Shown here piece by piece: positions 1,219 to 32,603 of a DNA stretch of 64,000 nucleotides. Origin of the DNA: a virus. Positions within the stretch are counted from its first letter, which is position 1; the number at the start of each line of letters is the position of its first letter. Below the pieces are notes generated by a model, which worked only from the letters and a program-made list of their open reading frames with translations, was not told the DNA's origin and ran no database searches. The translations under genes and the position numbers were made by a program. The DNA is taken from positions 35,224 to 99,223 of IMG/VR virus record IMGVR_UViG_3300024344_003209; one strand, given 5' to 3'.

Positions 1219-1247
1219 AGTATATTACAAACCTAAACAGTTGTCAA
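1219..1247 (-). promoter_or_regulatory. sigma70-type promoter TTGACA-N17-TATACT
   Basis: Minus strand reads TTGACA actgtttaggtttgtaa TATACT, then 9 nt to the ATG at 1209. Confidence 0.8.
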
Positions 1248-1811
1248 GTTTTTTATTTTAATTTTTAGTATATCTGCTCCTCTCCTATGTAGATTTATCG
1301 CTGTCTGAGAACTAAAACCCAATTTTTTTCCTATCTCAGACCAAGTCATCTTTTTTTCAGAGAAATACCTAAGTGAGTATACTTCTGAAACCCTTTTATC
1401 TTTTATAGATGATAAAGCCTTGTTTAGCTCTTGCATTAGGCTTATTCTTTCCATAGGGTTTATTACGAATAAATTATCATCAGTATGTATTTTATTTTTA
1501 TACCTCTCCTTTAAAGCACATTGCTTTCTAGACTTATTCATTAAATGCAAACATTTATATTTAGTTATATTGCTTAACCAAGTACAAAAACTAACACCTT
1601 TATCTTTTTTAAAGCTTTTTACGGCTTCATAAATAATCATGTCTTTATCGTCTAAAATATCCGAAGGGTCAGCTCCGGACTGCTTTATTGAAGATATAAA
1701 CCTTGAATACATAGAGAGGAAAACTGGAGAGTATCTCTCTATCACAGAAGATAGAGAATCTTCGCATTCTTCATCTTGTACTTTTTTTATTTGGATATAA
1801 TAATTTTTCAT
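1233..1811 (-). CDS. Phage-encoded sigma70-family RNA polymerase sigma factor
   Basis: 192 aa with region-2-like YEAVKSF..KGVSFCTWL and region-4 HTH EVYSLRYF..MTWSEIGKKLGFSSQ. Confidence 0.8.
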   Translation of the reverse strand: MKNYYIQIKKVQDEECEDSLSSVIERYSPVFLSMYSRFISSIKQSGADPSDILDDKDMIIYEAVKSFKKDKGVSFCTWLSNITKYKCLHLMNKSRKQCALKERYKNKIHTDDNLFVINPMERISLMQELNKALSSIKDKRVSEVYSLRYFSEKKMTWSEIGKKLGFSSQTAINLHRRGADILKIKIKNLTTV

Positions 1812-1816
1812 AATTT

Positions 1817-1853
1817 AAAAATAAATAAAAAGGAGGATTCCGCAAGCGGAATC
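1817..1853 (-). terminator. Terminator/attenuator-like hairpin just upstream of the sigma gene
   Basis: GATTCCGC-TT-GCGGAATC inverted repeat (1836-1853), then CTCC and a U-rich run TTTTTATTTATTTTT on the minus strand. The gap before the U run is non-canonical. Confidence 0.45.
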
Positions 1854-2173
1854 GGCGTATTTTTTTAGTGTTTCGCTTGCGAGACGAAAGAAAGCTTTTT
1901 GGTAATAGGCACACCTCACCCAACTTACATAAGTAACAAAAACAATTACAAAAGAACGCCTTAGCTTCCATATTAGTTCTATTCGCAGGGGCTTATACCC
2001 TTTTCGACCCTTTTATTAAGAGCCTAGCTAATGACTTTCGTAATCTATTTTACTATATGATCTTGTAACAGTAGAACTTTCTTAGATGTTACTCCTCTCT
2101 AACGCCGCCTGCACCCGCTTGTAGCGTGCTACTATTCAGTAGCTTGAGAAGCCCCTTCGGGGTTGTTGGTCTC

Positions 2174-2215
2174 TTAAGAGTTTCCAGACTTGCTTACGCT
2201 TAAACTGTTAATCAT
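2174..2215 (-). CDS. Putative 13-aa leader peptide MINSLSVSKSGNS
   Basis: ATG lies 9 nt after the -10 box, the same geometry as real genes at the other promoters; TAA at 2174-2176. Confidence 0.3.
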   Translation of the reverse strand: MINSLSVSKSGNS

Positions 2216-2224
2216 ACTTTGAGT

Positions 2225-2253
2225 ATTATAAAATTAGCTTGACTTTTTGTCAA
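2225..2253 (-). promoter_or_regulatory. Perfect sigma70 promoter TTGACA-N17-TATAAT (leftward)
   Basis: tgtcaa at 2248-2253 and attata at 2225-2230 with a 17-bp spacer. Confidence 0.9.
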
Positions 2254-2267
2254 GTCTTTTTTAAAAT
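2239..2267 (+). promoter_or_regulatory. sigma70 promoter TTGACT-N17-TAAAAT (rightward, overlaps the leftward promoter)
   Basis: TTGACT at 2239-2244 and TAAAAT at 2262-2267; ATG at 2274 follows after 6 nt. Confidence 0.75.
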
Positions 2268-2273
2268 TTAAAA

Positions 2274-2678
2274 ATGAGCAGATTGAATTGGTTTCAGTAT
2301 GGCATGCAGCTAGCTAGGACAGCTTCTTTAAGAAGTGAAGATCCATACATACAAGTTGGCTGTTGTATTCTTAGGCCTGATAACAGTATAGCATCTTTAG
2401 GATACAACGGAGCTCCTCCCGGAGTAGATATCGATTGGTCAGACAGAAACGATAGAAGAAAACGAGTTATCCATGCTGAAACAAATGCTTTAAGGTTTAT
2501 AAGACCGGGAGAAGGAGATAGAATGTTTGTCACATTAATGCCTTGTTCTGAGTGCCTTAAGAATGCAGTGTCATACGGCATTAAGCGAATATTTTATGAA
2601 AAAATTTACGATTTTGATACATCTTCAGAAGAGCTAGCGGTAGAGTTTAAAGTAACACTACAACAAATAAATCCATGA
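2274..2678 (+). CDS. dCMP deaminase
   Basis: RSEDP..QVG, GYNG, HAE and PCSEC Zn-deaminase motifs. Confidence 0.92.
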   Translation: MSRLNWFQYGMQLARTASLRSEDPYIQVGCCILRPDNSIASLGYNGAPPGVDIDWSDRNDRRKRVIHAETNALRFIRPGEGDRMFVTLMPCSECLKNAVSYGIKRIFYEKIYDFDTSSEELAVEFKVTLQQINP

Positions 2679-5898: not shown

Positions 5899-5927
5899 TT
5901 GACATTTAGTTAAGTTCATCTTATAAT
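5899..5927 (+). promoter_or_regulatory. Perfect sigma70 promoter TTGACA-N17-TATAAT
   Basis: Boxes at 5899-5904 and 5922-5927; ATG at 5936. Confidence 0.9.
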
Positions 5928-10259: not shown

Positions 10260-10288
10260 TTGACTTTAAGTTTAGTTTGTCTTATAAT
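10260..10288 (+). promoter_or_regulatory. sigma70 promoter TTGACT-N17-TATAAT
   Basis: Boxes at 10260-10265 and 10283-10288; ATG at 10295. Confidence 0.85.
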
Positions 10289-11014: not shown

Positions 11015-11353
11015 CTACCATTTGTCAATAGGACATTTCTCTTGAGTAAAGTACGCTTTAAGCGGCACTACGCATCCACACTTTTGGCATCTTTCTCCTT
11101 TGTCTGAAAACCAAGGGCAGCTTCTGCATATGGAAGTTCTTTTTGAGTAAAGTTCCTGTTTAGCTACTATTTCTTTTCCTTGTAAAGCTGCCTTTGTAGT
11201 ATTAGCGATACTTCTTGTTATATTTTTCGCCATTTTGAATCCGCTAGGCATCTTCACTACTTCTTTTTTTTCTAAATTTTTTAAAGATCTAGTTCTAGAT
11301 GTACTTCCGAAGGAAGGCTCTTCTCCCGCTTTTTCTTTATACTCGTTAGCCAT
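11015..11353 (-). CDS. Small Zn-finger protein
   Basis: R..ICRSCP..RCQKCGC...K....CPIDKW. Confidence 0.75.
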   Translation of the reverse strand: MANEYKEKAGEEPSFGSTSRTRSLKNLEKKEVVKMPSGFKMAKNITRSIANTTKAALQGKEIVAKQELYSKRTSICRSCPWFSDKGERCQKCGCVVPLKAYFTQEKCPIDKW

Positions 11354-14300
11354 TTTTCATCAAGTCGAACCTTAGTTGCTCATCACTAATCATAAAGACT
11401 TTTCTACCAAAAGGCGAACATTTATGAACACAAGGGCCTGCTTGGAAGTTTTGGTTAAACAAACCATCGGATCTTCTAACTATCATTTCTGTTTTGTTCG
11501 TACCGTAAACAGCAAGAGCCTGAGTAAATTCTGGCTCTATTTTAAATGTTTGTTTTCCAGCAGACGGATCTATTCTTTCTCTTGATGAAAACTCAAATTC
11601 TTGCATAGATGGCCCTATGATATCATCTCCATCAGCTAAGCCAAAATATTCTTCGTAACTTTGTACGTTACCTGTTCCACCTCTAACATCTCCGTCGGTG
11701 CATAAGCTGTGATAGCCTTGTTCCTTGTCGACTGTTCCTATCTTTTCGTTTTTACATATACCTCTAGTTTGCAGAATTGTTCCATTTATGTTTTCTATCT
11801 TACCTAATCCATCTTCTCCTACAGCGCTCTTAAGGAAGCTAGGCGAAGGCACTATCTCAAATTCTGTCCATTCTATAGTTGTCTTTAAAAACGTAGACCA
11901 AAAAGGTTTTCCGCTTATCTGACACCCAAATATTATTTCGTTCTCGTAAGAAGTGTCTATTATTTCAGATCCAGCTATATTGACAATAGAAACATCAGTA
12001 TCCATAGTTTCGCTTGTAATATCATATTCCTCACTTGTATAAACTAGTTCGCCCCCGAACGCAAAAGCTCTTCTTTTATTTAAGTTTGGCAAATCTAATC
12101 CTTTCTCTTGCGTAAGAACTTTTCCAGCACTATCTCCAGATACATCTCCATACGAAGCAGGGAAACAAAATACCCCATTCTCTTCTGGTATATTTACCTT
12201 ATTAGGCAGGCCTATATCTTTGGGAATATAATTTGCATCAAACACTTGATCTGTTTTAAACTCTTCAATATCATAAGTAGCTTTAGTTATATTTGACTTT
12301 ACTTGACCCTGCAGCCCTTTAAAGCCGGAGAACCAAGCTCTCTTATATTTCTTTTCTTTATGGTCGTAAAAATCTATAAAATTTTGCTTAGATAAAGCTT
12401 CGTATGTTAATGCTTGATAACTTTCATTTATTCTAACAATCTCTTCTCCTGCATTGCTAGGATCTTCCGGAGAGAATGTCATATTAGCCATATCCTCTAC
12501 ATACCTATATTCATATTTTCTATATTTTCTTACCTTTGCGAACACAGGAACATAAGCCCCCAAGAATCTCATGTTATTAATAGTTCTAACATAATTATTA
12601 AAGACTTCTCCAGTAACAGGAGACGTAGGATTAATACCAAACCCTTTAGGTAGGCTAGGATTTTGCTCTCTTGAAAAAGAACTTAACCAAGGTTGAGATT
12701 TATTGGCTATCTCATTTTTTACAACTCTATATTCCGCTATAGAATTATTATTAACTATTGCTGTTAAGACAGGTTTAGTTGGTTCTGGGAAAACTTCCTT
12801 CTCGCAACTGCCGTCTTCTTTTATAGTTACAGATATCTCTTGAGTAGCTTCTCTTTCGTCTGCTTCATATAGCCCTAAATGCTTACTGCTTTCTGTGCCT
12901 TGTAAATCGCTATATTCATCTTCTGTTGAAATTGCGTAAGATTGAGTATCTTTTATTTCTATGTTACGTTCGTTTAAACTATCTTCTCTTGCTTTAATTT
13001 TTCTTTCTATATCTTCTACAGTGTTCCAGTTATCGCTTTCTGATACAGCATTTAAAGTATTAACATATTTAGTTAATGTAGTTTTAAAATCTGCTATGGC
13101 TTGAGCACTTTCTGAGTCATCTACCCCAAAAGACTCCTCGACATATTCTGCTAAAGCTTCTGCCTCATCAGCTAATATACCAAAATTCTCTTGGCATTCT
13201 CCCGTATCTTCTGTAATATTATTAACTGTGACATCGGCCGTCTTTACCCCTTTATGCTCTGAAAGCGATATATAAGGCATCTGACGCTCTTTATAGTCTA
13301 TTGAAATCGAAGAAGCCTGAGTGGCAGTAGCCTGTTTACTTAGTGTGAATTGAGTCAAGCTGTTTATCTTTTCTACTCTTGTGTCAGAGGGTACGCCAGT
13401 TCCCGAGACTCTAGCTCCTAATATTATATTCTTTTGTCCATCGTGATTAACTAGTTTACTATTGTTAGTTAAATTAAAAGTATGAGTAAAGCTAGAATCC
13501 TGTATAACCATACTATGAAAAACAAAAGGAATATCGCCCTTCGCCCTATCTATAACTTTTTGCTTGCCTGCTTCAGAACTTACATCAGAATATCCAGCCC
13601 CCGAGTCAGAAACCTCTACATAAATAACTTTTCCTGACTCAATATGAGCTATAGCTTTCGAGGTTTTAGTTAGTAATCCTTTTTTAGGCTCCGGATCTTC
13701 TATTACAATGTCAGGAGCGACCCTGTAGTCAGAACCACCGGACTCTATAACTACCTTAGATATTCCTCCTACTGCTATTTTATCTACATAGGATGCTTTT
13801 AGTCTATGGGAGAGTCTATACTTATATAATCTCTCATGAGGTATATTAATGTCGTAATTATCAGCTACCCTAGAGTATTCATGACAACCAAAAAGACTTA
13901 CCCCTTCCTTAGGAATAGATATAGAATTCCCTATTAAATGGTTCTCAGCGAGATCAAGGCTAAATATCCCATCTACAGACTCGCCTATATCAGACTGCCT
14001 TATTACAGATCGCCAATCAAAGGGAAGCCTCATTAACTCATTGCGTCTAAAGTGTTTTAACACCCCTTCGTCGTAATACTGGAAAGTCTCATTTTTTATA
14101 GCCATCCTGTAAGTGCCAGTAAACGAACCCGCAGTACCAGAAGAACCAGAACTTCCCGAGCTCCCTGAAGGACTAGCCCCTAAGGAGACTCTAAAATTTT
14201 GTTTGTCGTCTATCTCTATGCTTAAATTTTCCTTTCCTGAAACCTGAACCCAGCTACCAGACTCTAATCTCTGTAAGTTAAATCTTATTGACTTAGGTTT

Positions 14301-17300
14301 ATTTCTAAACGAAGAAGAGCCATCGTCTTTAGGAGGCTCGAAACCGTTAATAAACCCTTTGACATGGTCCTCCGTTAAGCTAAAAGACAACTCCATTCCG
14401 CCGTCAAGTAATACTGGGTATATGTATTTAACTGTTGCTGGTAAAGGCCCGTCATAAGCTAGCCCGTGATCAGTTGTAGTACTCCTTAATAATTCATATT
14501 TTTTATCAAGACTAAATAACCTATCTAAATTTTCGGTATAAGAAAATGAAGAAGGAGTAAATAGAACGTGCTCTGAATCTGCATTGTAATTATTTAAATT
14601 AGGTACTTGATAGTCCATATAATCAGCAGCTATGGTATCATCGTTAGTTGTTTTCTTTATTTGGTCAACATAGTAAGCTGACTCAGTTATAAATATAGAA
14701 GTATATAGAGTTTCTAGTAAATCTTTCTTTGCGTCACTAAATAAAAACTCCTCTGTGTCTTGCGCATCAAAATGAAAAAATGTTTCAGTGTTAAAATCCT
14801 TATATTTATAAAGTATTTCTATTTCTCCATTTTCACAGATAAAATAATCTAACTTCTTGCCGCTAATAGAAACTTCAGCCCCATTAATTAAAATCTTAGC
14901 TTCGTCGCCTTCGCCCTCTATATTGCCTCCATTTAATATATATCTATATTCTTTTCCTTTCGTTAGCTTGACTACTACTCTAACCTCTTTGTTAAAAATA
15001 CTTACAAAATCTATAGTAGTATTATTTCGGAATAATATATTTTTAAAGCTTGCAAATATATCTAAGTCATGCCAATAAATATTCTCATCCAAATCTATTA
15101 AAGATGTTCTAGCTTTAGTTTTGTCTCGGTTATTTCCTGTTAAGTCACTTTCGTTAGAGACTAAACCCTCAGCGACAGCAGATAACTCTAAGTTCGCTCT
15201 AACAGAAAATACATTTCCTTCTTGGGTGTATATATTATCTGAAGTTGTAGCAAAAGCTTCGGCTGTATTCGGGCTTTCGTAACTATCCTCATTTTCCTCG
15301 TCAGAAACCCCGACTGAATAATCTTTATAAGAAGGTCTTTCTAGATAAAATCTCTTATTGTTCACTATAATAGGAAAGTTAAGAGACGTATATTGAGTAT
15401 CGTCTATTCCGTGATCGTATATTTTATTAATTACCGGATTCTGTCCCCTGTAACCATCTACTCTTCGCCCTTTGTTATCTAGTTGAGGCTGCAGGTTGAA
15501 GTAGTTTACTATTTTGTATTTATTACCAGAGAACCCTGCGCTGTCTATAATATTAACAGCATCGTAAGTTAAATCTGTATTTCGTTCGTCGTTATCAAAT
15601 ACATTTAGCACTTCATATAAATTAGAGCCCTTTTCTTCCCCATCTGCTGCTACAGCAAAAATTCTTAAAAAGTACACTCTCCCTGCTTTTATTTTATTAG
15701 GCCCAGATGTTCCTGCATCATGTTTGAATACTATAGCATCTCCGTTATCTACATTATTTAATCTTATAAAAGTCTTTCCATTATCAGTAGTCGCTTCTAT
15801 ATCGTTCCATCCACCAAAAGTATTAAGTTTTGCTACTCCTCCGGGTCTTGCTATGTCTTGATAAGATATTGATTCTAACTCAGAATCTAATATATATCTA
15901 AGTTTAGCTTTGCTTGTATTATTTGTTAGGTATGTTCCTATTTTAGCATCTTTAGTTAAATCATTAAATACTATTTTTTTGTTAGTTAATTTTTTTAATC
16001 TAAACCTAACGCTACTATAAGAAGCTTTATCTCTATTTAAATTAAATCTGAATCCAACCATTGGGTCAGGCCCAGAATGCACCCCAAAAGGAACAAAAGA
16101 ATATCCATGATTATTTTTTAAAGACAAATGAGCTTTATGATTTCTTTGGTTTATCTCTATTTGATTAGCCTTCATGTACTCATCAAGAGGCAGGAGTCTT
16201 TCGTCTGCATCTCTAACCTCCTTGCTTTGTTGTTCATATCGAGCTTTTATTCTGTCCATAGCTTTTACGCTTTGCTCTTCTGATATGGCTGAAGAAAAAT
16301 CTTCATTAAGGCTTCTTACAACCCCGTCGGGAGCAAAAGGCGCACTGTCTTTATCTTCTATAGATAACCTTATTAAGTCGTGAGGAGCAGAATTTAACTT
16401 TAAGGAAGATTTTATCTTGTACTCATAAGCAGGAGATTCTATGTTAGACTGATTTCTTTGATTCTTATATCCAACTAAATTAACTCTTACCCTTATAACT
16501 TTTTCAACTTTATCTTCTATTGTTATCTTTTCATCCCCTGATTGAATTATTGTATAATCTGAAGCTAAGGTGCCCTCTAGCAATGGTATAGTAAATTCAA
16601 AATTTCTCGTGTGGTGCCAATTACCTTTTTCATATTCGTTAATAACAAAAAGACCACCACCTTTTTTATCTACTTCATTAATATATCGCCCCTCTATATT
16701 TTTTATTTTTCTTCCCTGTATGAGTTCATAAGCAGCGCCGCTTGACACTTTTTCTTCTACCACCGCATTTAGAAAATTATTTCTATGTTCGTTAAGAGAA
16801 ACCTTACTCCAAGCGGGAGATTTAACAGCACTAGTGGGGTCATCTATTTTACTTTGAAATATTTTAGCAAAATCTGTTTTTTCGTCAGATTTAATAGAGG
16901 CGTCTTCAGCTGAATCATCTATATCTTCTACTCCGTATTGAGAAAATTTTAGATCAAAATGATAAGGCATATTTAGCTTATATTCAGTTAATCCAACACC
17001 TTTTATTTTTTCTCCGGGTCCGTAAACTTCTCCATTATACGTTAAAGTAACCTCTTCTGAGTAATCTTTTTGTTCGTATTCCTTTTTATTAAAGAGTCTA
17101 CTGAAATTATCTATTTCAATATTATTTAAATCATAAACAAAATCATAATCAAAAACTTCTTCCGACTCAAAAGAATGGTATCTATCCGGCTTAAAGCCTG
17201 ATAAAGTTATTTCGCCTGTTCTTTCGTTAAAGTGAGAGCATTTTGTTATTCTTTCGTGGCCAGTATTGAGACCGTAAGCAATTATATCTTGCTTCATATC

Positions 17301-20300
17301 CCAAGGTATTTTTAAATACATTGGGCTAGTCATAGACGATATATCTTTCTTAAAAAATACATCTCTTTTCACGCCCCTTTGATTACTAAAGAAAGTAACA
17401 CCAAATTTATATGCATCATTGTAATCTTCTATAGTTTGAAACCCTGTCTGGCCTTCTTTAGGCTCGTTTTTATTAGTGTTGAATATATTTGAAAATTTAT
17501 ACCTAGCTCCCTCATATTGAACATTAATGCCTCTCTTCTCTAATGTCCTCTCCATTTGCCATTCTTTTTCGTCAAAGTATGTTGGGTCTTCTATTAGATG
17601 AGGTATATCTAAATCTGTAAGCTTAATAAACCAATCTTCTCTTCTTTGCTTTCTTATTTCTGAATATGTTATATCGGTAGATGAAGTGAAGTCGGCTCTT
17701 TCACACGAGTAAACAGGAGAACTATAATTAATCAATTCATCCTCCTCGTTACTTTCTGAGTATTTTACATTTATTTCTCCATTTGAAATATTTGCTATCT
17801 TTAAATTATCAACACTTGCTACTTCTACATCTGCATTATGAGTTAAAATAAATACCTTGCTTGCGTTTGGAGTTATAGAGTATTTAGGTCTTACTAATTT
17901 TGTTCCTGCTCCCCAACTTCCAACTACATAAGAATTTTTAGAAAGTTGTAAATCCAAGCCTTCCTTTAAACAATCATTCCCTGATACGTTTAAAAACACA
18001 GTTCCAGACTGTATAGTTCCCTCTACCTCAAATGGATCTTTAAATACTATAGATTTATTCGCATAAAGAGACTTTCCGCAATAAAATCTACGAAGAAACG
18101 TTCTTTCCTCATCTAGGATGTCTTCATTATATAAGTACCTAATTAGGTCAACATAGGATTGCTTTTTAGTAATGTTGCCAACCGCAGCTTCTCCGGCTTG
18201 AGTTATGTTATATAAGTTCTTGCCTGATAAAGACGCAAACCTATATGTGTCCTCATCGGCATCATAATCCACTGTTCCTTCTAGATTGAATTTGTATACA
18301 TTTGTATCTTTTAGATTTCCCTCTATATCAAACCTATTATACAAAGACAAAGATATATTAGCTGACTTATCCAAAATATAATCAAAGTTTTTCTTTGGCA
18401 ATAATATTTTATCATTCGCCTGAGACAACCTAAACTCATCCAGCCTACAGCCTATATCCACTAAGTCAAAGCTCGTTGAACCATTATTAGCCACGCTAAA
18501 AGAAATTGGGCCTACTGCGGGTATATTTTTTACAGAGCTAGCGGCATCCATTATAGAAAATCCATTAAAAGACATAGAAATAACAGAAGGAATCCCGCTT
18601 TTTCGGTCTTGATCTACTGTATCGCTAGAAATAAAAGGAATAAAGTCAGCGCTAAAAAACTGCGGAACGCTGAAAGATCTAATGACTTGATCATTAAATA
18701 AAATAGCCTGTTTCTCGTATAACCCTTTGTCTAAATTTACTGTACCGTCTTTAATCTGCTTTATTAATCTATGTACGTTGTCTTTGTTTTTTAATACTAG
18801 AGCAGCAGAGCTAACTAGCATGTGCTTATCTTTATCTACTTGCAAGGTTTGGCTACTACCTATCAGCTTAAGGCCAAGGTTTGCTCCTGAGTTATTTATT
18901 ATGTTTGTTTGTGGTATTTCATTATTTATAATAAAACTTGAGCTCTGCCTAGTCACGGTGAAAGCCTTTAAATCTTTCCTATAAATGCCCCTCTCTACTA
19001 CTGTGCAATCAGAAGGGCCAGAAGATGCGAAAGCGTTTGAAGCATAACTTATTTTTATAAACTTACCCGACGCTAATGTTGTGTTAAAAACCGCAGACCC
19101 TTCAGGAGAGGTTATCTGTATTGAGTCTCTAGATCCATTTATTATTATAAAATCAAAATCTCTTGTTATTAACTTTCTTCTCGGTAAGGATATGTTAGTG
19201 TTATCTGCTACAGATATTATAGCTCTATTTTTTTGTTCGCCATCTACTGAGGAATCAGAGAACAAAGCTTTAGATTCTTTTATTTTTAATAACTTTGCAT
19301 CTCTTAAATCTACATTAACTAAATTTGATTGATAAACTTCTACTTCCGATTTTTCTCCTATGTCTCCTAGATTAATATCGCCATTTATATAAAAAGCAGA
19401 GAACCCAGTATCATTGTAAGCAGAAAAGTTTGGCGAAAGCAGCTCTGCTACAGAAAACTGCAAAGCTTTATTTTTTGGCAACAAAGCAGGAGTTAAATCC
19501 TGATCGTAATATTTATCAAACCTACCGCCACTGTGAGTAAAAGATCTGTAAGCCCCTCTAGACGGTATAATTTTTTCATTGATAAACGACTGCAAATGAG
19601 AAGAGAGAACAGCCGATTCAGCTCCACCGTTACCATCATAACCCTTAGCTGTAACAGACACATCCTCATATACAGTATTGACTAAATTAAGTTTAACCAA
19701 ACCCTCTTCCCCCACTCCCATGATCTTATAAATTGATTCATCGGCATGAGAAAAGTCTGTTTCGTCAGGAAGGACTAAGTAATCATTTATTTTCTTTGAG
19801 TCCGCAACGCTTAGACCTTCGTAATAAAAACCAATAGTAATTGGGCATTGAATACCAAATATGTTATATTTTTTCTCAGAATTTAAGTCTGCAGAAGAAT
19901 AAACAAAGTCATCAGAAGTGTTTGCTGGATCAGTATCTTGCTCTATCTCTATATAGGTAAAGTATTCTCCAGAGTCGTCATCAAAAGCAAATTGAGCCAG
20001 TTCAGCAGTATAAAATTTAGAGGAATGCAATTTACCTTCAGAAGTTAAGTTCTCTATACCGTAGCTATCTGCTGATTCATAATTTATATTAACATTAATT
20101 GGCTCTTTAGATATATTAGATATAAAGAATTTTGTGTTTTCATCATACGCAGCTTTACCATAGTCATCCCCTATATTACTTGAGACGTATGGCCTTAAGA
20201 AATTAATATCTCCATCTACTAAAATCTTCTTATTGTGATGTATGCTATGGTCAATAATTATATCGCCGGGTTTCATTATGAAAAACTCAGCCGTCGATCC

Positions 20301-23300
20301 TTTTGTGACTTTAGCTATTTTGCTATCTTCGTCTATATCAAAAGTATAACCATTAACTTCATTAACATTAAACAAAGTATGATTTGTTGGATCACCGTAA
20401 TTATTTTTGTCATTTATGAATGCAACTGAATCTGAGTTTAAAGTAAACCCTGTAGTATTATTAAAATTTTCAACCCTAACAGGCCTATCATGAAGATTAA
20501 CAACAGCTACCTTACCACCATTAGAGCCAACTAAATCTTCTAGGTTAGCCCAATTATTTGGTAAAACTATTTTTAAATCATCGCTATGCTCATCTGGCTT
20601 AAAGAATATAAAATTATGTTCAAGTCCTGAATCATCAGCCTTACTCAAATATTTTCTGTCTAATACGTGAAGCTCATTTTTTGGATAGTATATTATATCG
20701 CTAGCGTTAGCAACGGTAGAGTTTTGATCCTGCTCAACAAACGTGCCACCGCTAGTGTGTTTTGCAACTCTGTTCTTTTTAATTTCATACTTAGCGTTAT
20801 TATTAGTGTTAGATATAGCGACTTTACTTAAGCCCGCATTTATATAATAATCACCATCAAAATTAGAATCAGACAAGTCTGCCTTAGCATGAAACTTACC
20901 ACTTAAAAATACAGTATCCTTACCTTGAAGGCTCTCTACAGAGCAGGTATCAGTGCTGCCATCCTCTGTGTACCCTGTTACGTAATGAACGCCGGAAGGA
21001 GTACTACTGCCACTTGTGTATACGTTAGAGTAATGCTGTTGCAATGATGCAGTTTTATTTATTTCTAGAGACTCAATTAGCTGAACATTGTCAGAGAAAG
21101 TCTTTATAGCTTCCGCAGGGGCGTTATTAACTATGTCTAAACTAGAAGTGTCAATATTGTTTACATAAAAGGTATCAGTCAACCTTGAGTCCTCTTTTTC
21201 CAACCTTTCGTTAGTACTTAGAGCAGAATCTAAGTAAAGCTCTATATTATTACCATCTAAAACTTTTACAAAATATGTTTGCTTTCTAGATTCAGAAGAA
21301 TCATCATCTGCAGAAATAGTCAAGCTGAACTCAGTAGCGGTTTCTGTAGAAAGGCCTGTTTTATTTCCAAAGAAATCGTACATCTTAGTTGTACCTTTTA
21401 TATAAGCAAAAAGCCTATTTACCTCTACGTCGCCAGCCACTAACTTCCTAGAGCTAGTGTTTAAACCTAAAACATCAGAAAAACTATAAGGATAATCAAA
21501 GTTGGTTTTAATTAATTTGTAATCCGCCCCTCTATAGTAAGTAAAGTAATATGCACCACTAAGATAACAAAGAACGCTATCACCATCAGAGAAGCCTTGT
21601 GGGTTCTGCGGGGAAGTCTGGTTATGGTAATCATCCGGATCTCCAGCATAATAATGATCTGCTACTATAACCTTTTCGCAATTAAAAGTCAACTTTTGAT
21701 ATGTAGTCAAACCATGGTTTTTAAAATTAAATTTATTAGTACTAAAAGACAGGTATTCAATAAATTCACCTTCAGCATTAAACATTGTTTCCATGTTTTT
21801 CTGCGAGTACTTGTGCTCTTTTTTTGTATAAATGTCTTTTTTAATCGCCGACTCTAAATATACATTATCTACTGATCCATCTAAAACAACAAAGTCGCCA
21901 TCAGATAAATCTTGTGAATGATTTTGCGTCTTATTAGTATATACAAAATTATTATAATCAGTTTCTTTTCTTTCCGACTTATCGTACAAAAAGTTAGTAG
22001 AACTAAATTCTGCAACTTCTGATATATCAAGCAAAACATCACGAGAAGAAGATTCTGCAGGTAAGGAAGCTTTAGCTCTAGTTTTAGCTAGATTGCAAAA
22101 CACTAAATCAAACGGGTGATCATAAGTGTTGTCATTGATCGTAGGTAACTCAAGACCTAGGTCTTCGCTTCTGTTCACTATCACTTTTTCCCCAGTCGAA
22201 GAAGGTTGATCAAATTTATACCTATCTGACTGGTCTAGCTCTTCGATCACAAAAGTAAATTGATTTTTACTTCTTATAGATATAACTCTTTCTTTTGACA
22301 GCGGGGTATTATAGTAAAATCCAATCTCATCACCATACTTATCCACAAACTTAACCGACTCATCATCGGAAGATAAACCAATCAAAACATCCTCATCGAC
22401 GTCTTTTTTAGAAGTAACAAAAATTTCAAAATTACTATCGTATCTATCAGAGGCGAACTTAAAGTCTATTGAGCCACCTTGACCTGAGTAGGAATATACT
22501 CCCTGAAAGTCCTCATTGCTAACTGAGACCTCGTTAAAAACTATAGGTTTTATATCTTTAAACTCGAAGTCAGACCCATTAAATTTAATTCTAGTGCCAA
22601 GACTATTGCTTGGGGCAGTGTACTTCAAGACTCCATTTATAAAAATTCTCATCACAGGAGTAATCCAGTCCTCCCTGCTACCCTCTATATTAAAATTTTC
22701 TATTTGATTTCTAACTACATTTACGTATCTACCACTAGCTATAGTCCCTGTTATTTTTATGTCTACGTCTTCGTTGTGAACTATAGTGTTACCTGCAGAT
22801 GCGAAATGAGAACTAGTTAAATTTAATTGATTATAGCTTACTACTTCGATATCACTTGCCGCCCAGTTGTTATTATTATAAGTAAATTTTCTAGCTGCTT
22901 TGGGTGGTATATAATCTGTCAGTTTAGAGTTAACTGTATGACTAGAATTTTCTGCTAAAACTTTAGTCTCGTAATTAGTTGCGTTAAGGAAAGTTATATG
23001 CTGGCTGTTAGATAAGTTGTTTGGTAATATTAAATCTGCACTGCAATCAATAACCCCTGTTATGTTAGCATCATCGTTTGTCAGCTTTATCTTGTCGTGC
23101 TCCATTATTATAGCATTGCTATCTACGCTACCATTAGTAACACTAAGAGAACTAGTCGAAAGATTGATCACTTTATTAGTGCTGCCGCCAGCTATCGTAA
23201 CTTTAGAGCAATCTTCTACGACAACTGGGTCATTTGTATCTGTTATTGTGGCAACAGGAATAGGTGTTTCTACGCTTCCGTCATTAGCTGTTATATTTAA

Positions 23301-26300
23301 TACATCAGCTGGAATCGAGCCAACAGGATTTGATGATGCGGTATTAGCTACACTAGCCCCGGAAACTATAAAAGTTTTACCTTTGTCATCTTCTGTGGCT
23401 ATTAAGTTGCTAGTTATAATTGGGGGGTTGTAAAAGTTGTCTACAGGAGAAAAAGTGAGACTACTAACGCTTGTTAGGGTTGAGGTGCCTCCATCACCAG
23501 TAGTAGCTGAAGAGCAAGAAAAATTAATTATTTTGTCATTATTATCTTTTAGTTCGTCGAAATGACTTCCAGTTATAGATGGGGTTACAAAAGCTCTTGT
23601 CTCTTCAGCAGGAAGTCCAAAAAGCTCAGCGTCTCTTTGGGTTCCTAAATAGCTATCTTCTTTTCTTGTCAATAGTAAACCGCTAGGCTTAGGCCCTAAT
23701 ACGGTATTTATGTTAGATAGAGAACTAGAAAAGCCTCCATTTTTACGTATCCTGACACCAGTTAAGCCAGCTAAAGATATAGGTTTAGATGTTAAAGACG
23801 ACTCACTAGATACAACATCACCATCTACGTTAGTTTGCAAAGTTTCTATTTTTAACTCGCTAACCAAGTCTTTATATATATTTTCACTTGTATTTTTTAT
23901 TAAATAATACTCCCTTGTAGGATCAAGAGTAACGACAGCATCTCCGGCTGAATCTATAACTGTATCGCTAGCCTGCTGTGTTATATTCACAAGAGTCTGG
24001 CTAGTTGGCATAGTCACATCTAAAGGTAAGAAATTAATCTTTTTGATTACTTTAGTTAAATCATTTTCTAATTCTATATTCTGTTTCTTTTTTATTCTAA
24101 ACTCTATTTCTTCTGGTCTATACTTTCTAGTTATATCTGTCCTCATTAATATATAAGGTATGGAGTTTACTACTTGTATATTATTGAAAGAGTCGGCTCT
24201 GTTTTCTGTATAATCATTATTATAAAAAATTCTCTGCTCAACAGAAGTTGATGTAGGCTCGACATCTGACCAAGTCGTACCGGAATTCAAAGAGTATTGC
24301 AATTCATAATCCCAACCCCTTTGAGAGCTATAAGAATCTTTAGTGCCAAGATCTCCTATTAGTACCGCATTTTTAGTATATATTTTATATACGTATTTAG
24401 TTATTCTTAATCTAGATCCAGCGGAGAACGCTCTTCTGTCTATGTCGTCTCTACTTGTTATGTAGTTGCCTCCCTTAATGTTGGATCTTATAAAACCTAT
24501 ATCTTCCCCCGCCACATCTTCATAAAGGTAAGGGGCAGCTAGGAAGTCTTTCTTTGCGTCTTTTGCTCCGTCTTTGTATTTATAACTTTCAAATCTTATT
24601 CTGTCTATATCGCTTATTGATGTTATAGGAGAACCTTCATAATTTTTATTTATATGAGGGTTATTTGGTGCTTGATATGCGTACCCCCTTATATAATTAA
24701 TCATAGCCCTACTTGAGCTAACGCTTAAATTATCTGACTCTGAAGATGAAGCGAGCCACTCACCCATATGGTAGGTATCTTCCTCGTTTGTATTTTCTTT
24801 GTACTCGTTAGGTGGAGCTACATTGTTAAAAGAATTTTTATTTGTTATCCAGTTTCCGGGAACAACTTCTCTTCTAGATAAGAATCTTAAAAGCTTATAC
24901 GACCTAGGGTTAGCTTCTTTCTCTAATACTGGCGGAGAAGGCTTAGCGAACGTCCCATTTATCTCATTCGATTTACCAACATAAAGCCTAATGTTATAAA
25001 GCCTACCAATAAAACCATCCCCAATAACTAAAGATTTATTATTTTTTGCCTCTAAGTCATTAAATTCAAAAGCATTATTTGTTTTCTCTTTGCCATCGAC
25101 AAATAATTTTAAATCTATTTGTTTAGTTGACTTATTAAAAGTTGCAGATATAGCAACATGATGCCAAGTATCATTAGTTAAAGCTGACCACGTTATCGCA
25201 TCTTGTCCAGATATTTTAAATTCTAATACATGGTTAGGCTTCATTGAAACTTCTATAACACCAGATTTGGTAATTATTTTTTTATCTTGAGATCCGTTAG
25301 GCTTTATCCAAAAGTCCAAAGAGAAATTACCTTTTAAGATATTAAAAGATCTATGGCTACCTAAATCAAGCTTATCTCCGGCATCAAAGACCATAGCTTG
25401 GACAGATGTGCCAGATACAGTATCTGAAGTTGTAGTTACATGAGGATTATTGCTATCATCTTCATTTACGTTGTCTATCTTATGCTCAAACTTAGACCAA
25501 TCATAAATAGAGTTGCTGGCTTTAGATTTTAATATTAGACTATCAGCGGATTCATTAACGGTCCTTATGTTGGTTTTATTAGTAGTGATCCTTGACTTAG
25601 TCCACTCGAGAGCCCTTATTTTAAGGTTGCTTGAAGGATTATTAAACGTTGAATTTTTTAAATTCACAGTTAAGCTAGAAGAGTCTAAAGCTTCTAAAGC
25701 TGGGCATACTTGAGACCAATCGCTAGTTCCGTCCTTTGCTTGTATCTCATAATAAACTCCCGCAGTGGGATTCTTTATTGTTATGCTCCTTTCTCCTGCA
25801 GTTGACCCAGCGAAAGTCAAAGGGTCGGATGCATTTCCCTCTCCAGTAACAGAAATACCATCGTAAGACAAAACCCCTATTGCTTCATTTGCCCTAGAGA
25901 CCCTATTGTTAACCAAGCTACATCTAAAATTGTCAGGCTGGTAAGTGTATACGCTATCTGTGTTAACTAAATCTATGTCAGTTATTTCGTAGTTGCTATT
26001 ATTAGAATAGTGAAACTCATCTCTAACTTCGTTATTCAACAAAAAGTAAGAAGGGTCTTTAAAAGGAAACACTTGTTGTGAAATATGAGGCTTTTGGTAG
26101 ACCTGAGTCATATATAACTTCTCCTCACCTAAAGCTTCTGGGTTTCTGGTAGAGGGGTTAATAGAGAATGGACTTAGAGCCTGCCCTTGTTTAGAAGAAA
26201 AAACAGAAGGAGAATAGTTATTAGCCTGAGTAGAATTATCAGAATCAATATATATATCTCTTTCTAAATAGAAAACAGTAGAGTCACCTAATTCACTAGC

Positions 26301-28412: not shown

Positions 28413-28433
28413 CAAACCTTAAACCTTGCACTT

Positions 28434-28445: not shown

Positions 28446-31400
28446 CTAAGAGGTTATCTCCCTAGGATCTACATAATCAAATAATGTTGGGTCCTCTTCT
28501 GAAGATCTTGATGCAATTTCGCTAAATTTCCAGTTAAGAGAGCTCGTCTGGTTGTATAAATCTAACTTTAGCGAATAAGGGTTAATGAACGCGCCACTCA
28601 TAGCCCTAAAATAAAAGTCCATTTGAGCATAAGGCTCAGTATCCAAAATAGCCCCATTTGGAACTCTAGGAATTAGCTTAAGGAAGTAAAACCTCGGATA
28701 ACAAGCTCCGAAAGGTCTATATCCGTCACCTTCGATAACCTCAGAATCAGAACCGTAATCGCCTACCATATTCCTCTTACAAGAATGTTTCCCGAAACTA
28801 TGGTGTAGATACTCTATTATGGCGTTCTCATCGGTCCTGTAAGGCTCTTTTTTAAGCAGGGACCGTGAGACACCCACCCAGCCTCTAGAACCCACTGAGA
28901 GCCTTCCTGTGCCCCGTAATGGCTTGTTTAGAGTCACTTTAACTATCTCGTAAGGCGTATGACCATTTATATCCCTAGAAGATGGGTTAAAATCTGATGC
29001 GCCAACTCTTGCTCGGCCACTATTACTCACAATCTCAGTCTTTGTGACTCTATAAGGCCTAGGTGTTACAGCAGGACAAGAGCTTAAATAATCAGCTCTA
29101 CCGTCTCCAGTCTCCGAATAAAGATTTACGTTACCCTGCTCTGGGTCATTTGTATTAAAAATATAATTAAAATTAGGAGAGCTTTTAGAAAGAAAAATTT
29201 GCATTTGGCCCGGAACATTCCAAGGTTTAACAGGAGTTCTCATTAACTCACTTCTTATCATGTCGTACTTATCTCCGTAGCTGTTCTCATACTCTTTAGA
29301 CCTATGATGACATCTATTATTCAAGAAGCCCATTATATCGTTATAAATACTAGGTTTGTAAATATTACTGTTAGCCCAATGATAATGAGAAGATGTCATA
29401 AACATAACCCAATCATTAGTGATTCTTTTAAGATTGTCTCCTGTTTTGCCTTCAGCTAAAGTGATCCCATCCAACTCAAAAGCGCCCTCGCACCAAGGTC
29501 TTGTTACTGTATTAGAGTCTAAATGATCTTTTTCATTTCCTATAAAAATTGAACCATGAGCACTACCCTTGCCGTAAGGTCTTCCTTCATAGTAAACACC
29601 AGTGCCTTTAGTGGAAACTACTTTATATTTTTTACCTTTTTGTATAGGTACGAACTTGCAGTGACCGGGATTCATAGGGTCAACAGTATTTTCATGAAAC
29701 CATCCCGCTGGATCGATGGAAGGCTCCATATTCCTTAATATAGTAGCTTTGTATCTTTTACTTAAACCCCAAGCGAATCTTTTAAAGTATAGCACTCCCT
29801 TTCCATTTTCAACTTTATAATTTACTATCTGCTGCCTATCAGCGAAACGCATGAAGCTACTTATAAATTTCCTCATAGACTCATATACAGGATTAGCTGA
29901 AACGAACTGAGATAAAGCAGGCACAGCCGAAGATCCATATATATTCATAGCGGACCCATACTTATAATAATTTCTAAATATCCTGTTGGATTCCGAAAAA
30001 TGGTGACCAACAACACCTACCCCGGGCTGGTCGCCTAATATAATGTTTGAAAAAACATTTGATCTATTCTGTTTGGCGGTAGCCACTCTTAGTAGAGCGT
30101 AAGCATCTTGGAAAGAAGGCTTTCTCTTTTGTAATATAGCTAAGTCAACTTTAGCCTTGAACACGTGCTCAGGTGGCGTAAGTTTTTCTACAACTAAAAC
30201 TTCAAAATTACAATGCCTCTTACCCTCAACGAACAACTCTTCATATATATTTGCTATTCCATCAAAAGAGGCAACGTCTTCGTCAAGTTTCGAAATTATG
30301 TTTGATACCCCTAACTCCTCATGTTTAGTCTTAACCAAAGAAGGTTGATTTAACCTATCGTCTTGTCTTCTAGAAAAATAAAGCTTATCCTTGTTTGAAC
30401 CTGACGTGCCAGAGCTGGCTTTTCTAACAAACAACACGTTACCGTCTTGCAAATGAAGAGTTCTTGTAGCAGGAAAAGACCCATCTTCATTTTTAGGGGG
30501 AAAAGTATTTAAATAGTTTATGTAAGCTGTATCTATTTGGGCCTGTGTTCTATCTCCATTAGGATTAAATTTTGAGTGAGTCTTAGGTAATGTATTATCC
30601 CACTTTAAGCATCTTACCCTTACTAAATCTCCGGTTTCAAAATTATTAGCAAAATCTACATTTTTTATATGAGAATTTTCATCTGGTATAGGTACAGATC
30701 CAAACAACGGGTTAGTAGTTCCGGCTCCGTGAGCAACAACACTTGGCCAAACACCTGCGTCTCTATCCACTTGGCTAGGATCAATAATTAAAAAATGTGT
30801 ATCGCTAACTGTAGCAGACCAAGGATTACCTAAAGGAATATATTTCTTAACCTCTCCTTCTCTGTCCTTAAAGTCAACATTGTTAACAACAGGGACAATT
30901 TGAAATCTAAATTTATGATTTTCTCCTTTTGGCTCCAAGCCTTCCTTGAAGTAAAACATTTTATTAAAAACGTATGCTGACCTTCCTGTACCTTTTCTAT
31001 TAACTCTATAAGAATGAGTATTAGTGATAATAGTTTCGTGAACTATTTTGCTTCCAGAAAATATTCTAAATTTAAACCTGCATTCTTTGTCTTCTATAGG
31101 GTTTGTTTCTAGATAATAACCAGCAATACAAGACTTTATATAGTTTGAAGTGCCTCTGCCGGATGTTGAATCAAAATTTAAATAATCCCTTCCCTGCCTG
31201 ACAGATTTATGACTATCGTAATCGCACTCAAAGACTCCAGTATTTTTTTTATTATAATCTGATAAATCTTTTTTAGAGAAGCCAATAATTTTACCATATC
31301 GACTCTGATCTTTATTTCTTTTATCCACAGATAATTCATGCATTATAAGATCGCTGTTGTAGACATGCGGTCTAGTACAATAAAGCATTGACTTTACAGT

Positions 31401-32603
31401 CTCTTTCTCAGTACCGTACATTATATTAGATTGATTATGTTTTATAAAATAAGAAAAGCTTACTCTATAAGGCTCAACTTTCATGTTACCTATTTCGTCT
31501 AATTCGTAATAACCTTTATGAGCTACTGTTCCGTCAGTAGCTTTAAATTTAGTAGGTATACCTAAGGCCGGGGCAAATACATTTTGCCTAGTGAAATATT
31601 TATAAAAGTCGAAACCAACTTTACATATATTCAAAGGCCCACTCCTATCCTCTCTGAAATTAGCTATAGAAAGCTTGTAACTGGTTGTAGACTGAAAATC
31701 AATAACCTTAGTTTGCCAAGACTTCTCCTCGCAAAACAAACTTCTTTGAACTTCTGAACCTCTAAAGTAATAAACGTAGCACCATAGCCCCCACTGCAGT
31801 AAATCCTTAGCAGCATTCTTTCTTTTTAAAACTCCATCTGGGGCTCTGTAGGCTTGCTGATATTTTATAAAATTACCTCCCTGTATAGCAGGGGGATATC
31901 TCATATATGAATAAGTGCTAGCGTACTCTTCAAAATACCTATCCGAAGAAACAGCTGCAGCCGTCAAACTAGTACTTAAAAAAGTGCTATCGTAAGGGTC
32001 CGGTAAGTATTTAGCCTCTACTCTTCTACCTGCCCCGAAAACAGAATAACCATCCCATTTTGTATCATATAACAAATCCATTCGGGCGTGATTCTCGTAT
32101 TTACTGTTTCTGCCTATAGCCCCTCTTTGTATATAAGCATCTTCCCAGTATTGCTGGTTACTAAGTATAGCTCTTGAAGAAGCTACTAGTCCGTCAAATG
32201 AATTACCTTCAGCCCAAGGGCCTTGCTTTGTTAAAATTTTATTTTCTGCTGTTTTTCTTCCAAATATAAAAGCATTGAGCGGGTTCAGTGTATTGGCTCC
32301 TTGAGGGTGCCCCGCTAAAGTAAGAGGCCAATTACCAGTGCCCGAAGCCGCCACAGGATACTCTATCGTCATGTATATTTTCCACCATTCATCTTCAGGG
32401 GGATTAACCCCTATAGGGAAGCTTGGTGTAGCTGTATTTCGCATACCGGTAAATATGCTATCAGCAAAATAAAATATCCTCCATAGACAATCAGGTCCAG
32501 ATCTAGTAAGCCTTAAATTTACTTGCCTAGCTAGCCTGTTATGATCTTCGTTATCTGGGCATTTTTTAGGGTCTGCCAAAGGTACACTAGAGAAAAATTC
32601 CAT
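28446..32603 (-). CDS. Large putative virion protein (1385 aa)
   Basis: Long ORF in the tail module; no recognised motif. Confidence 0.65.
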   Translation of the reverse strand: MEFFSSVPLADPKKCPDNEDHNRLARQVNLRLTRSGPDCLWRIFYFADSIFTGMRNTATPSFPIGVNPPEDEWWKIYMTIEYPVAASGTGNWPLTLAGHPQGANTLNPLNAFIFGRKTAENKILTKQGPWAEGNSFDGLVASSRAILSNQQYWEDAYIQRGAIGRNSKYENHARMDLLYDTKWDGYSVFGAGRRVEAKYLPDPYDSTFLSTSLTAAAVSSDRYFEEYASTYSYMRYPPAIQGGNFIKYQQAYRAPDGVLKRKNAAKDLLQWGLWCYVYYFRGSEVQRSLFCEEKSWQTKVIDFQSTTSYKLSIANFREDRSGPLNICKVGFDFYKYFTRQNVFAPALGIPTKFKATDGTVAHKGYYELDEIGNMKVEPYRVSFSYFIKHNQSNIMYGTEKETVKSMLYCTRPHVYNSDLIMHELSVDKRNKDQSRYGKIIGFSKKDLSDYNKKNTGVFECDYDSHKSVRQGRDYLNFDSTSGRGTSNYIKSCIAGYYLETNPIEDKECRFKFRIFSGSKIVHETIITNTHSYRVNRKGTGRSAYVFNKMFYFKEGLEPKGENHKFRFQIVPVVNNVDFKDREGEVKKYIPLGNPWSATVSDTHFLIIDPSQVDRDAGVWPSVVAHGAGTTNPLFGSVPIPDENSHIKNVDFANNFETGDLVRVRCLKWDNTLPKTHSKFNPNGDRTQAQIDTAYINYLNTFPPKNEDGSFPATRTLHLQDGNVLFVRKASSGTSGSNKDKLYFSRRQDDRLNQPSLVKTKHEELGVSNIISKLDEDVASFDGIANIYEELFVEGKRHCNFEVLVVEKLTPPEHVFKAKVDLAILQKRKPSFQDAYALLRVATAKQNRSNVFSNIILGDQPGVGVVGHHFSESNRIFRNYYKYGSAMNIYGSSAVPALSQFVSANPVYESMRKFISSFMRFADRQQIVNYKVENGKGVLYFKRFAWGLSKRYKATILRNMEPSIDPAGWFHENTVDPMNPGHCKFVPIQKGKKYKVVSTKGTGVYYEGRPYGKGSAHGSIFIGNEKDHLDSNTVTRPWCEGAFELDGITLAEGKTGDNLKRITNDWVMFMTSSHYHWANSNIYKPSIYNDIMGFLNNRCHHRSKEYENSYGDKYDMIRSELMRTPVKPWNVPGQMQIFLSKSSPNFNYIFNTNDPEQGNVNLYSETGDGRADYLSSCPAVTPRPYRVTKTEIVSNSGRARVGASDFNPSSRDINGHTPYEIVKVTLNKPLRGTGRLSVGSRGWVGVSRSLLKKEPYRTDENAIIEYLHHSFGKHSCKRNMVGDYGSDSEVIEGDGYRPFGACYPRFYFLKLIPRVPNGAILDTEPYAQMDFYFRAMSGAFINPYSLKLDLYNQTSSLNWKFSEIASRSSEEDPTLFDYVDPREITS

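Follow-up and report, generated by a model that had tools for sequence, protein, structure and literature searches.

Comparative evidence for a large, conserved structured RNA encoded ahead of a sigma factor gene in marine phages

Large RNAs with a complex fold are rare in bacteria and phages, where they are represented by RNase P, the group I and group II introns, OLE, GOLLD, ROOL, and raiA, and to our knowledge each such large RNA has so far been proven, or is suspected, to be a sophisticated machine. Among smaller RNAs, the put RNAs of HK022 and the EAR antitermination leaders have a length of about 70–120 nt and are composed of two stem-loops, and 6S RNA is a rod-like molecule of about 180 nt that resembles an open promoter by virtue of its large central bubble. 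Large ornate orphan RNAs have been the subject of cryo-EM work (PMC12286853), and a csRNA catalogue from IMG/VR lists 10,006 candidate structured RNAs that are supported by covariation and have no function assigned (PMC10690425). The text of that paper names no sigma-associated motif. Here we describe an intergenic region of a marine virus that, on comparative evidence, is the gene for a conserved, large structured RNA with no matching catalogued family. This RNA and the csRNAs come from the same data source and rest on the same kind of evidence; parts of the RNA may already be contained in that catalogue, and such an overlap is not excluded.

The DNA analyzed here, referred to as the window, is a stretch of 64 kb from a 99-kb IMG/VR virus record that has almost no Pfam or PHROG matches, structural proteins included. 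Positions 1812-2273 of the window form a divergent intergenic region between a sigma factor gene on the minus strand and a dCMP deaminase gene on the plus strand, with the following genes and promoters:

1233-1811, minus strand: sigma-70-family gene (Pfam), 192 aa, downstream of the RNA, with its ATG at 1811
2274-2678, plus strand: dCMP deaminase gene, with a dUTPase gene next to it
2253-2225, minus strand: promoter of the RNA, TTGACA-N17-TATAAT, with the -35 hexamer at 2253-2248 and the -10 hexamer at 2230-2225
2239-2267, plus strand: divergent promoter TTGACT-N17-TAAAAT of the dCMP deaminase gene, whose ATG is 6 nt farther on; this promoter lies outside the RNA

A preliminary description of this DNA had proposed that a perfect promoter fires into the only long noncoding gap of the window, in front of a phage sigma factor gene, and all three elements of this proposal hold. 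The promoter matches the consensus at 12 of 12 hexamer positions, and both hexamers are kept in 16 of 16 aligned homologues. The only stretch of at least 120 nt in the 64-kb window without an ORF of at least 60 aa is 1972-2273, and the sole ORF covering 1812-1971 is a nonconserved frame of 66 aa. The sigma protein matches the Pfam model Sigma70_r2 with 26.3 bits, which is over the cut-off (the match to r4 is under it). The -35 hexamer of the RNA promoter lies inside a palindrome, CTTGACAAAAAGTCAAG, that is common to the plus-strand deaminase promoter; this palindrome (window 2238-2254) carries the -35 boxes of both divergent promoters, is nearly invariant in 16 aligned homologues, and could serve as an operator for a regulator.

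Strong promoters elsewhere in the window stand only 6–9 nt before the ATG of their genes and should therefore give near-leaderless mRNAs, which makes an untranslated stretch of about 400 nt exceptional for this phage. These sigma-70-type promoters are located at 1219-1247, 5899-5927, and 10260-10288, and the start regions of the genes behind them have no Shine-Dalgarno sequences. The neighbors of the RNA are enzymes of nucleotide metabolism, namely dCMP deaminase and dUTPase in the window as well as a dNMP-kinase-like protein, and ARAGORN detects neither tRNA genes nor a tmRNA gene in the 64 kb. Elsewhere, the minus strand of the window contains giant ORFs of 5689, 2134, 1724, and 1385 aa (11346-28415, 44023-50427, 58759-63933, and 28446-32603, respectively); those mid-sized ORFs (288–758 aa) of the giant-ORF block that were scanned gave no Pfam match and one PHROG match of unknown function.

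Protein-guided and pattern scans identified 28 homologous loci in marine viral or metagenome contigs, which represent 22 distinct sequences. Wherever a locus extends far enough, the RNA and the sigma gene point in one direction from the promoter region and the dCMP deaminase gene in the other, and the RNA gene is present in a single copy in the 99-kb record (one per genome). All carriers of the RNA are viral or marine metagenome contigs; two pattern scans of bacteria and archaea, covering one genome each of 185,579 species, found no copies, and neither the RNA region nor sigma has a DNA (blastn) or protein (tblastn) match in cultured phages. Six further pattern matches (L017, L036, L134, L135, L139, and L141) proved to be chance matches in unrelated DNA, two of them GC-rich. 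At one locus (L034:7-585), the sigma gene has an in-frame stop that may be a sequencing error or mark a pseudogene, and the RNA upstream is intact.

As a single sequence, the region has a folding energy no different from that of shuffled sequences on either strand (z = -0.2 and -1.0), and the case for structure must therefore be comparative. A MAFFT alignment of 16 sequences analyzed with RNAalifold gave 74 predicted pairs, 22 of which have compensatory double changes. We also constructed a covariance model, R1, with 13 curated helices, 314 positions, and 62 pairs, and realigned 24 matches to it; cmsearch scores are 332 bits in the window and 203–348 bits in 23 other loci. In this alignment 98.1% of the cells form standard pairs, compared with 42–50% when the partners are slid by 1–3 columns, and 24 of the 62 pairs are compensatory, compared with 2–8 after sliding; the observed pairing and compensation were not matched in any of 500 column shuffles. 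The R1 alignment is fitted to the model, and its counts are hence biased towards it; because the independent MAFFT/RNAalifold run also finds compensatory pairs, the structure signal does not depend on the model. The preliminary description had seen a chain of hairpins in the region and had named a comparison with Rfam and covariation in relatives among its tests. Strong conservation and the 24 compensatory pairs now support the hairpins, although the ordinary energy means that they could not have been demonstrated from the one sequence alone.

G-U pairs account for 16% of the paired cells and would leave the opposite strand only 83% paired; the RNA is therefore read in the direction of the sigma gene. 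The RNA is also more constrained than its coding neighbors, since the identity of the core between loci is 71–97%, whereas that of sigma falls to 54–60% and that of the deaminase to 67–71% at the amino acid level; invariant runs in the RNA reach 29 nt (GAGACCAACAACCCCGAAGGGGCUUCUC and ACAAGCGGGUGCAGGCGGCGU). No part of the window reaches the gathering score of an Rfam 15 family, and a permissive scan of 1500-2600 gave a best E value of 0.49, with unrelated small families only, in agreement with the earlier statement that signatures of tmRNA, RNase P, SRP, or group I introns could not be recognized. The classes without a match include RNase P, tmRNA, 6S, SRP, group I and group II introns, T-box, and riboswitches, and among the large RNAs GOLLD, ROOL, OLE, HEARO, raiA, and IMES. 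A full-text literature search found no published description of this RNA, and no sites complementary to its conserved single strands, as expected of antisense targets, were found elsewhere in the 99-kb record. It is a large orphan structured phage RNA without a counterpart in Rfam 15.

The 5′ end of the RNA is predicted near 2218, 1–2 nt before helix P1. The core is modeled as 13 helices in two domains (P1–P8 and P9–P12) that are tied together by a 7-bp pseudoknot, PK1, and followed by a hairpin, P13:

1904-2219, minus strand: conserved RNA core of 316 nt, model R1 (cmsearch, 332 bits)
2056-2216, minus strand: 5′ domain, in which P1 and P2 enclose P3, P4, P5, and the P6-P7-P8 three-way junction
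2216-2212/2060-2056, minus strand: helix P1, outer closing helix of the 5′ domain
2209-2205/2071-2067, minus strand: helix P2, second closing helix of the 5′ domain
2072-2078, minus strand: 5′ strand of pseudoknot PK1, AGUUCUA (partner 1981-1975)
1944-2045, minus strand: 3′ domain, in which the 11-bp P9 encloses the hairpins P10, P11, and P12
2045-2035/1954-1944, minus strand: helix P9, 11 bp, with compensatory changes
1975-1981, minus strand: 3′ strand of pseudoknot PK1, UAGAACU (partner 2078-2072)
1906-1922, minus strand: G/U-rich hairpin P13, UGGGUG/UGCCUA, containing UUGGGUGAGGUGUG

In the 5′ domain, the loop of hairpin P3 is a GNRA tetraloop that varies by sequence between GUAA, GGAA, and GAAA, and P8 bears an invariant ACAAGCGGGUGCAGGCGG. 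A helix given by RNAalifold at alignment columns 40-43/58-61 (A4 columns) was dropped in favor of the local hairpin P4 because a double change in L038 fits P4 only. The compensatory pairs of the 3′ domain are distributed over P9 (6 of 11), P10 (3 of 5), and P11 (1 of 3). PK1, which joins both domains, was found by scanning for covarying pairs outside the nested structure; it is 99.3% paired, with a double change from U-A to C-G in the most diverged type-A sequence (L029) and a change from U-A to U-G in seven sequences. A further short helix, UCAU/AUGG, is possible and rests on one pair. The G/U-rich 3′ part to which the preliminary description had drawn attention (UUGGGUGAGGUGUG) is accounted for by P13, whose 5′ strand is invariant and in which five of the six pairs vary one-sidedly through exchanges between G-C, G-U, and U-A.

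Between the core and the sigma gene there are three further features:

1854-1905, minus strand: variable linker, about 10 to 70 nt long in homologues and not conserved
1836-1853, minus strand: terminator-like hairpin GAUUCCG-CUUG-CGGAAUC, with a 7-bp G+C-rich stem and a CUUG loop
1812-1835, minus strand: CUCC and a U/A-rich tract (CUCCUUUUUAUUUAUUUUU after the hairpin) that reaches the sigma start codon

A hairpin and a U-rich run had previously been noted just before the sigma ATG, and both are found there. Three pairs of the stem have compensatory changes, and in most clades no fold of the tail has a lower energy than the stem. The sigma ATG lies 24 nt past the stem in the window, and across type A and two diverged variants (L133/L137) the distance from the hairpin to the sigma AUG is 16–28 nt. 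The 3′ end of the terminated RNA is expected, by prediction only, in the U runs around 1815-1831. The quality of the U tract differs among homologues, being good in the window and poor in L015 and L005; because 4 nt separate the U run from the stem and the run is poor in several clades, termination should be partial. The best sigma-70-like promoter directly before sigma reaches only 6–8 of 12 matches in 17 homologues, with the exception of L015, which has an extended -10 element (TGATATAAT) 8 nt before the sigma ATG, and in some lineages such as that of L015 sigma may be transcribed separately. As most homologues offer sigma no convincing separate promoter, polymerase probably reads through the hairpin.

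The sigma homologues form two groups, a close group (at least 51% identity) that has the RNA and a sister group (35–45% identity) that comprises 195 viral loci, 80 of which were examined. In most sister loci, sigma is encoded directly behind a dNMP-kinase-like gene and intergenic regions are short. R1 gave weak matches in only two of them (L117 and L133), where the aligned part is the P6-P7-P8 junction; here P6 changes from CUUCUC/GAGAAG to CCAAUC/GAUUGG through three fully compensated pairs, and the core CGGG...GGCGGCG.UUGAGA is retained. A pattern scan added L137 and L138, resulting in four diverged variants, termed A2, in which P1, P2, P9, and PK1 occupy the same places with different sequences (e.g., GCGGUG/CACCGC for P2 and CUGAAUUU/AAAUUCAG for P9) and P10–P12 are reduced. 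PK1 takes the forms AGUCCUG/UAGGACU, AGUCA/UGACU, and AGUUC/GAACU in these variants, and RNAalifold on the four sequences recovers it independently. The sigma proteins of the diverged variants are only 32–38% identical, yet the RNA is still upstream of sigma, at a distance of 0, 0.6, or 2.1 kb, and always co-oriented with it. The order is RNA, hairpin, sigma in L133/L136 and L137 (with the deaminase gene divergent in L136) and RNA, kinase, sigma in L117; in L138 the RNA is followed by a gene with its own TTGAGT-N17-TATACT promoter, an ORF, the kinase gene, and sigma, 2.1 kb away. The A2 variants also have a strand of about 16 nt (AAAGCUGGGAGUCA or GGAAGGAAGAAGUUAAA) in duplicate, once in the core and once just before the downstream gene (L117:1205-1228 and 1386-1411; for L133, approximately L136:860-895 and 1040-1075), and this strand could be a competing-strand switch.

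Sister phages encode other RNAs or candidate RNAs at comparable places. A second, unrelated structured RNA of about 400 nt, RNA-B, lies one gene upstream of the dNMP-kinase-sigma pair (L102:839-1319, L110:842-1309, L116:911-1376, L124:524-993, L129:564-1016, L090:444-913, and L103:1000-1402). Among these seven sequences 40 of 62 predicted pairs are compensatory, and RNA-B ends in its own G+C-rich terminator, behind which a new promoter lies. No similarity between RNA-B and the window RNA was detectable, and Rfam gave no match (related loci gave one tRNA only). Other sister phages have a third conserved ORF-free stretch of about 390–450 nt that is G+C- and hairpin-rich and preceded by a TTGACA promoter (L126:555-968, L127:587-974, and L132:841-1288); covariation in this stretch was not examined. 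One locus with a sigma of 35% identity (L052:2200-2480) lacks the RNA and shows a gap of 280 nt, in which a TTGACG-N17-TATAAT promoter precedes extremely A/T-rich repeats of the TATTATAT type. Two further apparent gaps in sister loci, D and E, are an open-ended minus-strand ORF with third-position variation and not RNA gaps.

The preliminary description had offered two alternatives for the region, a novel phage ncRNA or an attenuating leader that delays sigma expression and, by conjecture, would thereby time the switch to late transcription. Apart from the conjectured timing, this pair of readings is supported by our analysis, and computation cannot separate the two. To one form of the first we give an even chance, namely that a free-standing early phage RNA is made and that its leaky terminator also meters sigma by read-through. 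Host polymerase would make the RNA in quantity soon after infection, an inference drawn without transcript data, and most transcripts would stop at the hairpin, releasing a free RNA of about 390 nt whose ends, abundance, and stability are predictions. The conserved junctions would probably bind a partner, be it a protein, RNA polymerase, or a small molecule, none of which has been identified, and the free RNA would act in its own right, the biochemical role of the core being unknown. Some polymerases would be expected to pass the imperfect terminator, with its 4-nt spacer before the U run, and to yield sigma mRNA; because sigma has no convincing promoter of its own, the terminator of the RNA gene would become a dosage valve for sigma. 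A free-standing RNA is favored because the linker is free in length and sequence and no conserved pairing couples the core to the hairpin, because other genes, including one that has a promoter of its own (L138), may stand between the RNA and sigma in family members, and because the sister RNA-B is a separate transcription unit. Three observations count against it: the RNA is without exception upstream of sigma and co-oriented with it, which fits a cis element too; five members of the window's clade prefer a tail fold that hints at regulated termination; and L015 has its extended -10 element before sigma.

The other alternative, which remains well possible even if we would not call it probable, is a cis-acting control leader whose core senses a ligand or binds RNA polymerase or another protein and thereby sets the passage of polymerase beyond the hairpin, and beyond any later terminators, into the sigma operon. 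The RNA would then be a riboswitch or attenuator of very large size, or else resemble put in rendering polymerase resistant to terminators. The RNA heads the sigma transcription unit in type-A loci and in the diverged variants, the absence of a convincing sigma promoter and the position of the hairpin shortly before the sigma AUG suit control in cis, and a signal from the nucleotide pool would be in keeping with neighbors from nucleotide metabolism. The linker of the window's clade contains an element, CGCAAGCG (1881-1874), whose sequence complements the 5′ arm and the loop of the terminator (1848-1841). Where this antiterminator-like pairing forms, the terminator cannot, and in the window, L024, L002, L023, and L014 it gives the tail its lowest energy (down to -19.8 kcal/mol, z = -2.6). 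The attenuating leader proposed earlier gains some footing from this pairing; however, the element lies in the nonconserved linker, outside the conserved core, occurs in one clade only, and is lost even in the close relative L018, which, like all other clades, folds the terminator. No core partner was found for the covarying terminator arms, and no conserved alternative pairing connects the core and the hairpin. The loop of P8 (CAAGCGG) was considered as a general antiterminator, since it is complementary to 7 nt of the terminator (CCGCUUG) in most type-A loci, but this complementarity is broken without compensation in L040, L029, L028, and L015. A put-like mode can do without alternative pairing, and neither a variable linker nor intervening genes stand in its way. 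Against a cis-acting leader, a core of 316 nt and 13 helices is far bigger than known aptamers or than put with its roughly 70 nt, and in L138 the gene next to the RNA has its own promoter.

Tentatively, and with the chances in our estimate against it, the core of about 320 nt may be the sensor or effector of a new and unusually large class of cis-acting transcription-control RNAs that gates the sigma operon, or else a new ribozyme or RNA-protein machine for host takeover. Such a control class would extend over a broad group of aquatic phages and might work, for example, by binding RNA polymerase or by reading the nucleotide pool; the antiterminator of the window's clade and the duplicated 16-nt strands of the A2 variants would then both be explained by expression platforms that evolve fast and differ between clades.

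By analogy with ColE1 RNA II and the origin transcripts of T4, the RNA might instead be a replication-origin primer or R-loop transcript in a divergent early control region, which we regard as very unlikely. The divergent arrangement with two back-to-back promoters and a common palindrome, the strong promoter, and the A/T-rich tract downstream of the hairpin would be in keeping with such a role; however, the GC skew of the window merely follows gene orientation, neither iterons nor other repeats were seen, no replication genes adjoin, and the G-U-tolerant compensatory pairs, the pseudoknot, and the GNRA loops point to a compact tertiary fold rather than to a hybrid former. A small protein or leader peptide, or a conserved protein-binding DNA element, was tested and is rejected, for although an AUG 9 nt past the -10 hexamer (the leaderless geometry of this phage) opens a frame of 13 codons and a 66-codon frame starts at 1971, the AUG lies in P1 and turns into ACG or GUG together with its pairing partner, its frame has 4–13 codons among homologues, with 4 in L002 and L005, indels shift the 1971 frame in L002, L005, and L007, no reading frame is conserved in the RNA, with 2–13 stops in each of the six frames of every homologue, and a DNA element cannot explain strand-specific G-U pairs.

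The window RNA is bound up with one definite biological decision, namely how the phage is supplied with a sigma factor of its own when infection starts. Should the core control read-through, it would represent a new viral way of timing the transcription program; should it act in trans, abundant ocean phages would possess a new host-takeover RNA of the early phase. The compact core suits cryo-EM and chemical probing, and the natural variants, that is, type A, the diverged A2, and the unlike RNA that sister phages have at the corresponding site, allow comparative dissection.

Compared with known systems, the window RNA departs most clearly from 6S RNA, as its consensus is multi-branched with two domains and a pseudoknot and Rfam reports no 6S match. 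With riboswitches and attenuators it shares the succession of a conserved folded domain, a variable region, a terminator-like hairpin, and a gene, as well as a competing pairing in the window's clade; it differs in that the competing strand lacks both conservation and a link to the core, no known class matches, and known aptamers are several times smaller than the core. The hallmark of a riboswitch or attenuator, a terminator and an antiterminator that exclude each other and of which the latter overlaps a conserved sensor, is not seen here. The put RNAs and EAR leaders are similar in placement, lying just behind an early host-type promoter and ahead of a terminator and genes without promoters of their own, and they act in cis without alternative pairing. 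The window locus has this layout of an early promoter upstream and a terminator downstream within one transcript, and the same order is found in A2 variants; the RNA itself, with its pseudoknotted core of 316 nt and 13 helices, is different, and whether it binds polymerase is unknown. GOLLD and ROOL, and also OLE, raiA, and HEARO, resemble it in a length of more than 300 nt, many conserved helices, a pseudoknot, GNRA loops, and near-invariant junctions. The window RNA is smaller than GOLLD and ROOL, has no Rfam match to them and no tRNA genes nearby, and is tied to a sigma operon, so that neither homology nor the tRNA neighborhood of that group applies to it. Like GOLLD and ROOL, it is phage-borne, known from comparative genomics only, and of unknown function, and it fulfils the description of their type as a large, multi-helix phage RNA supported by covariation.
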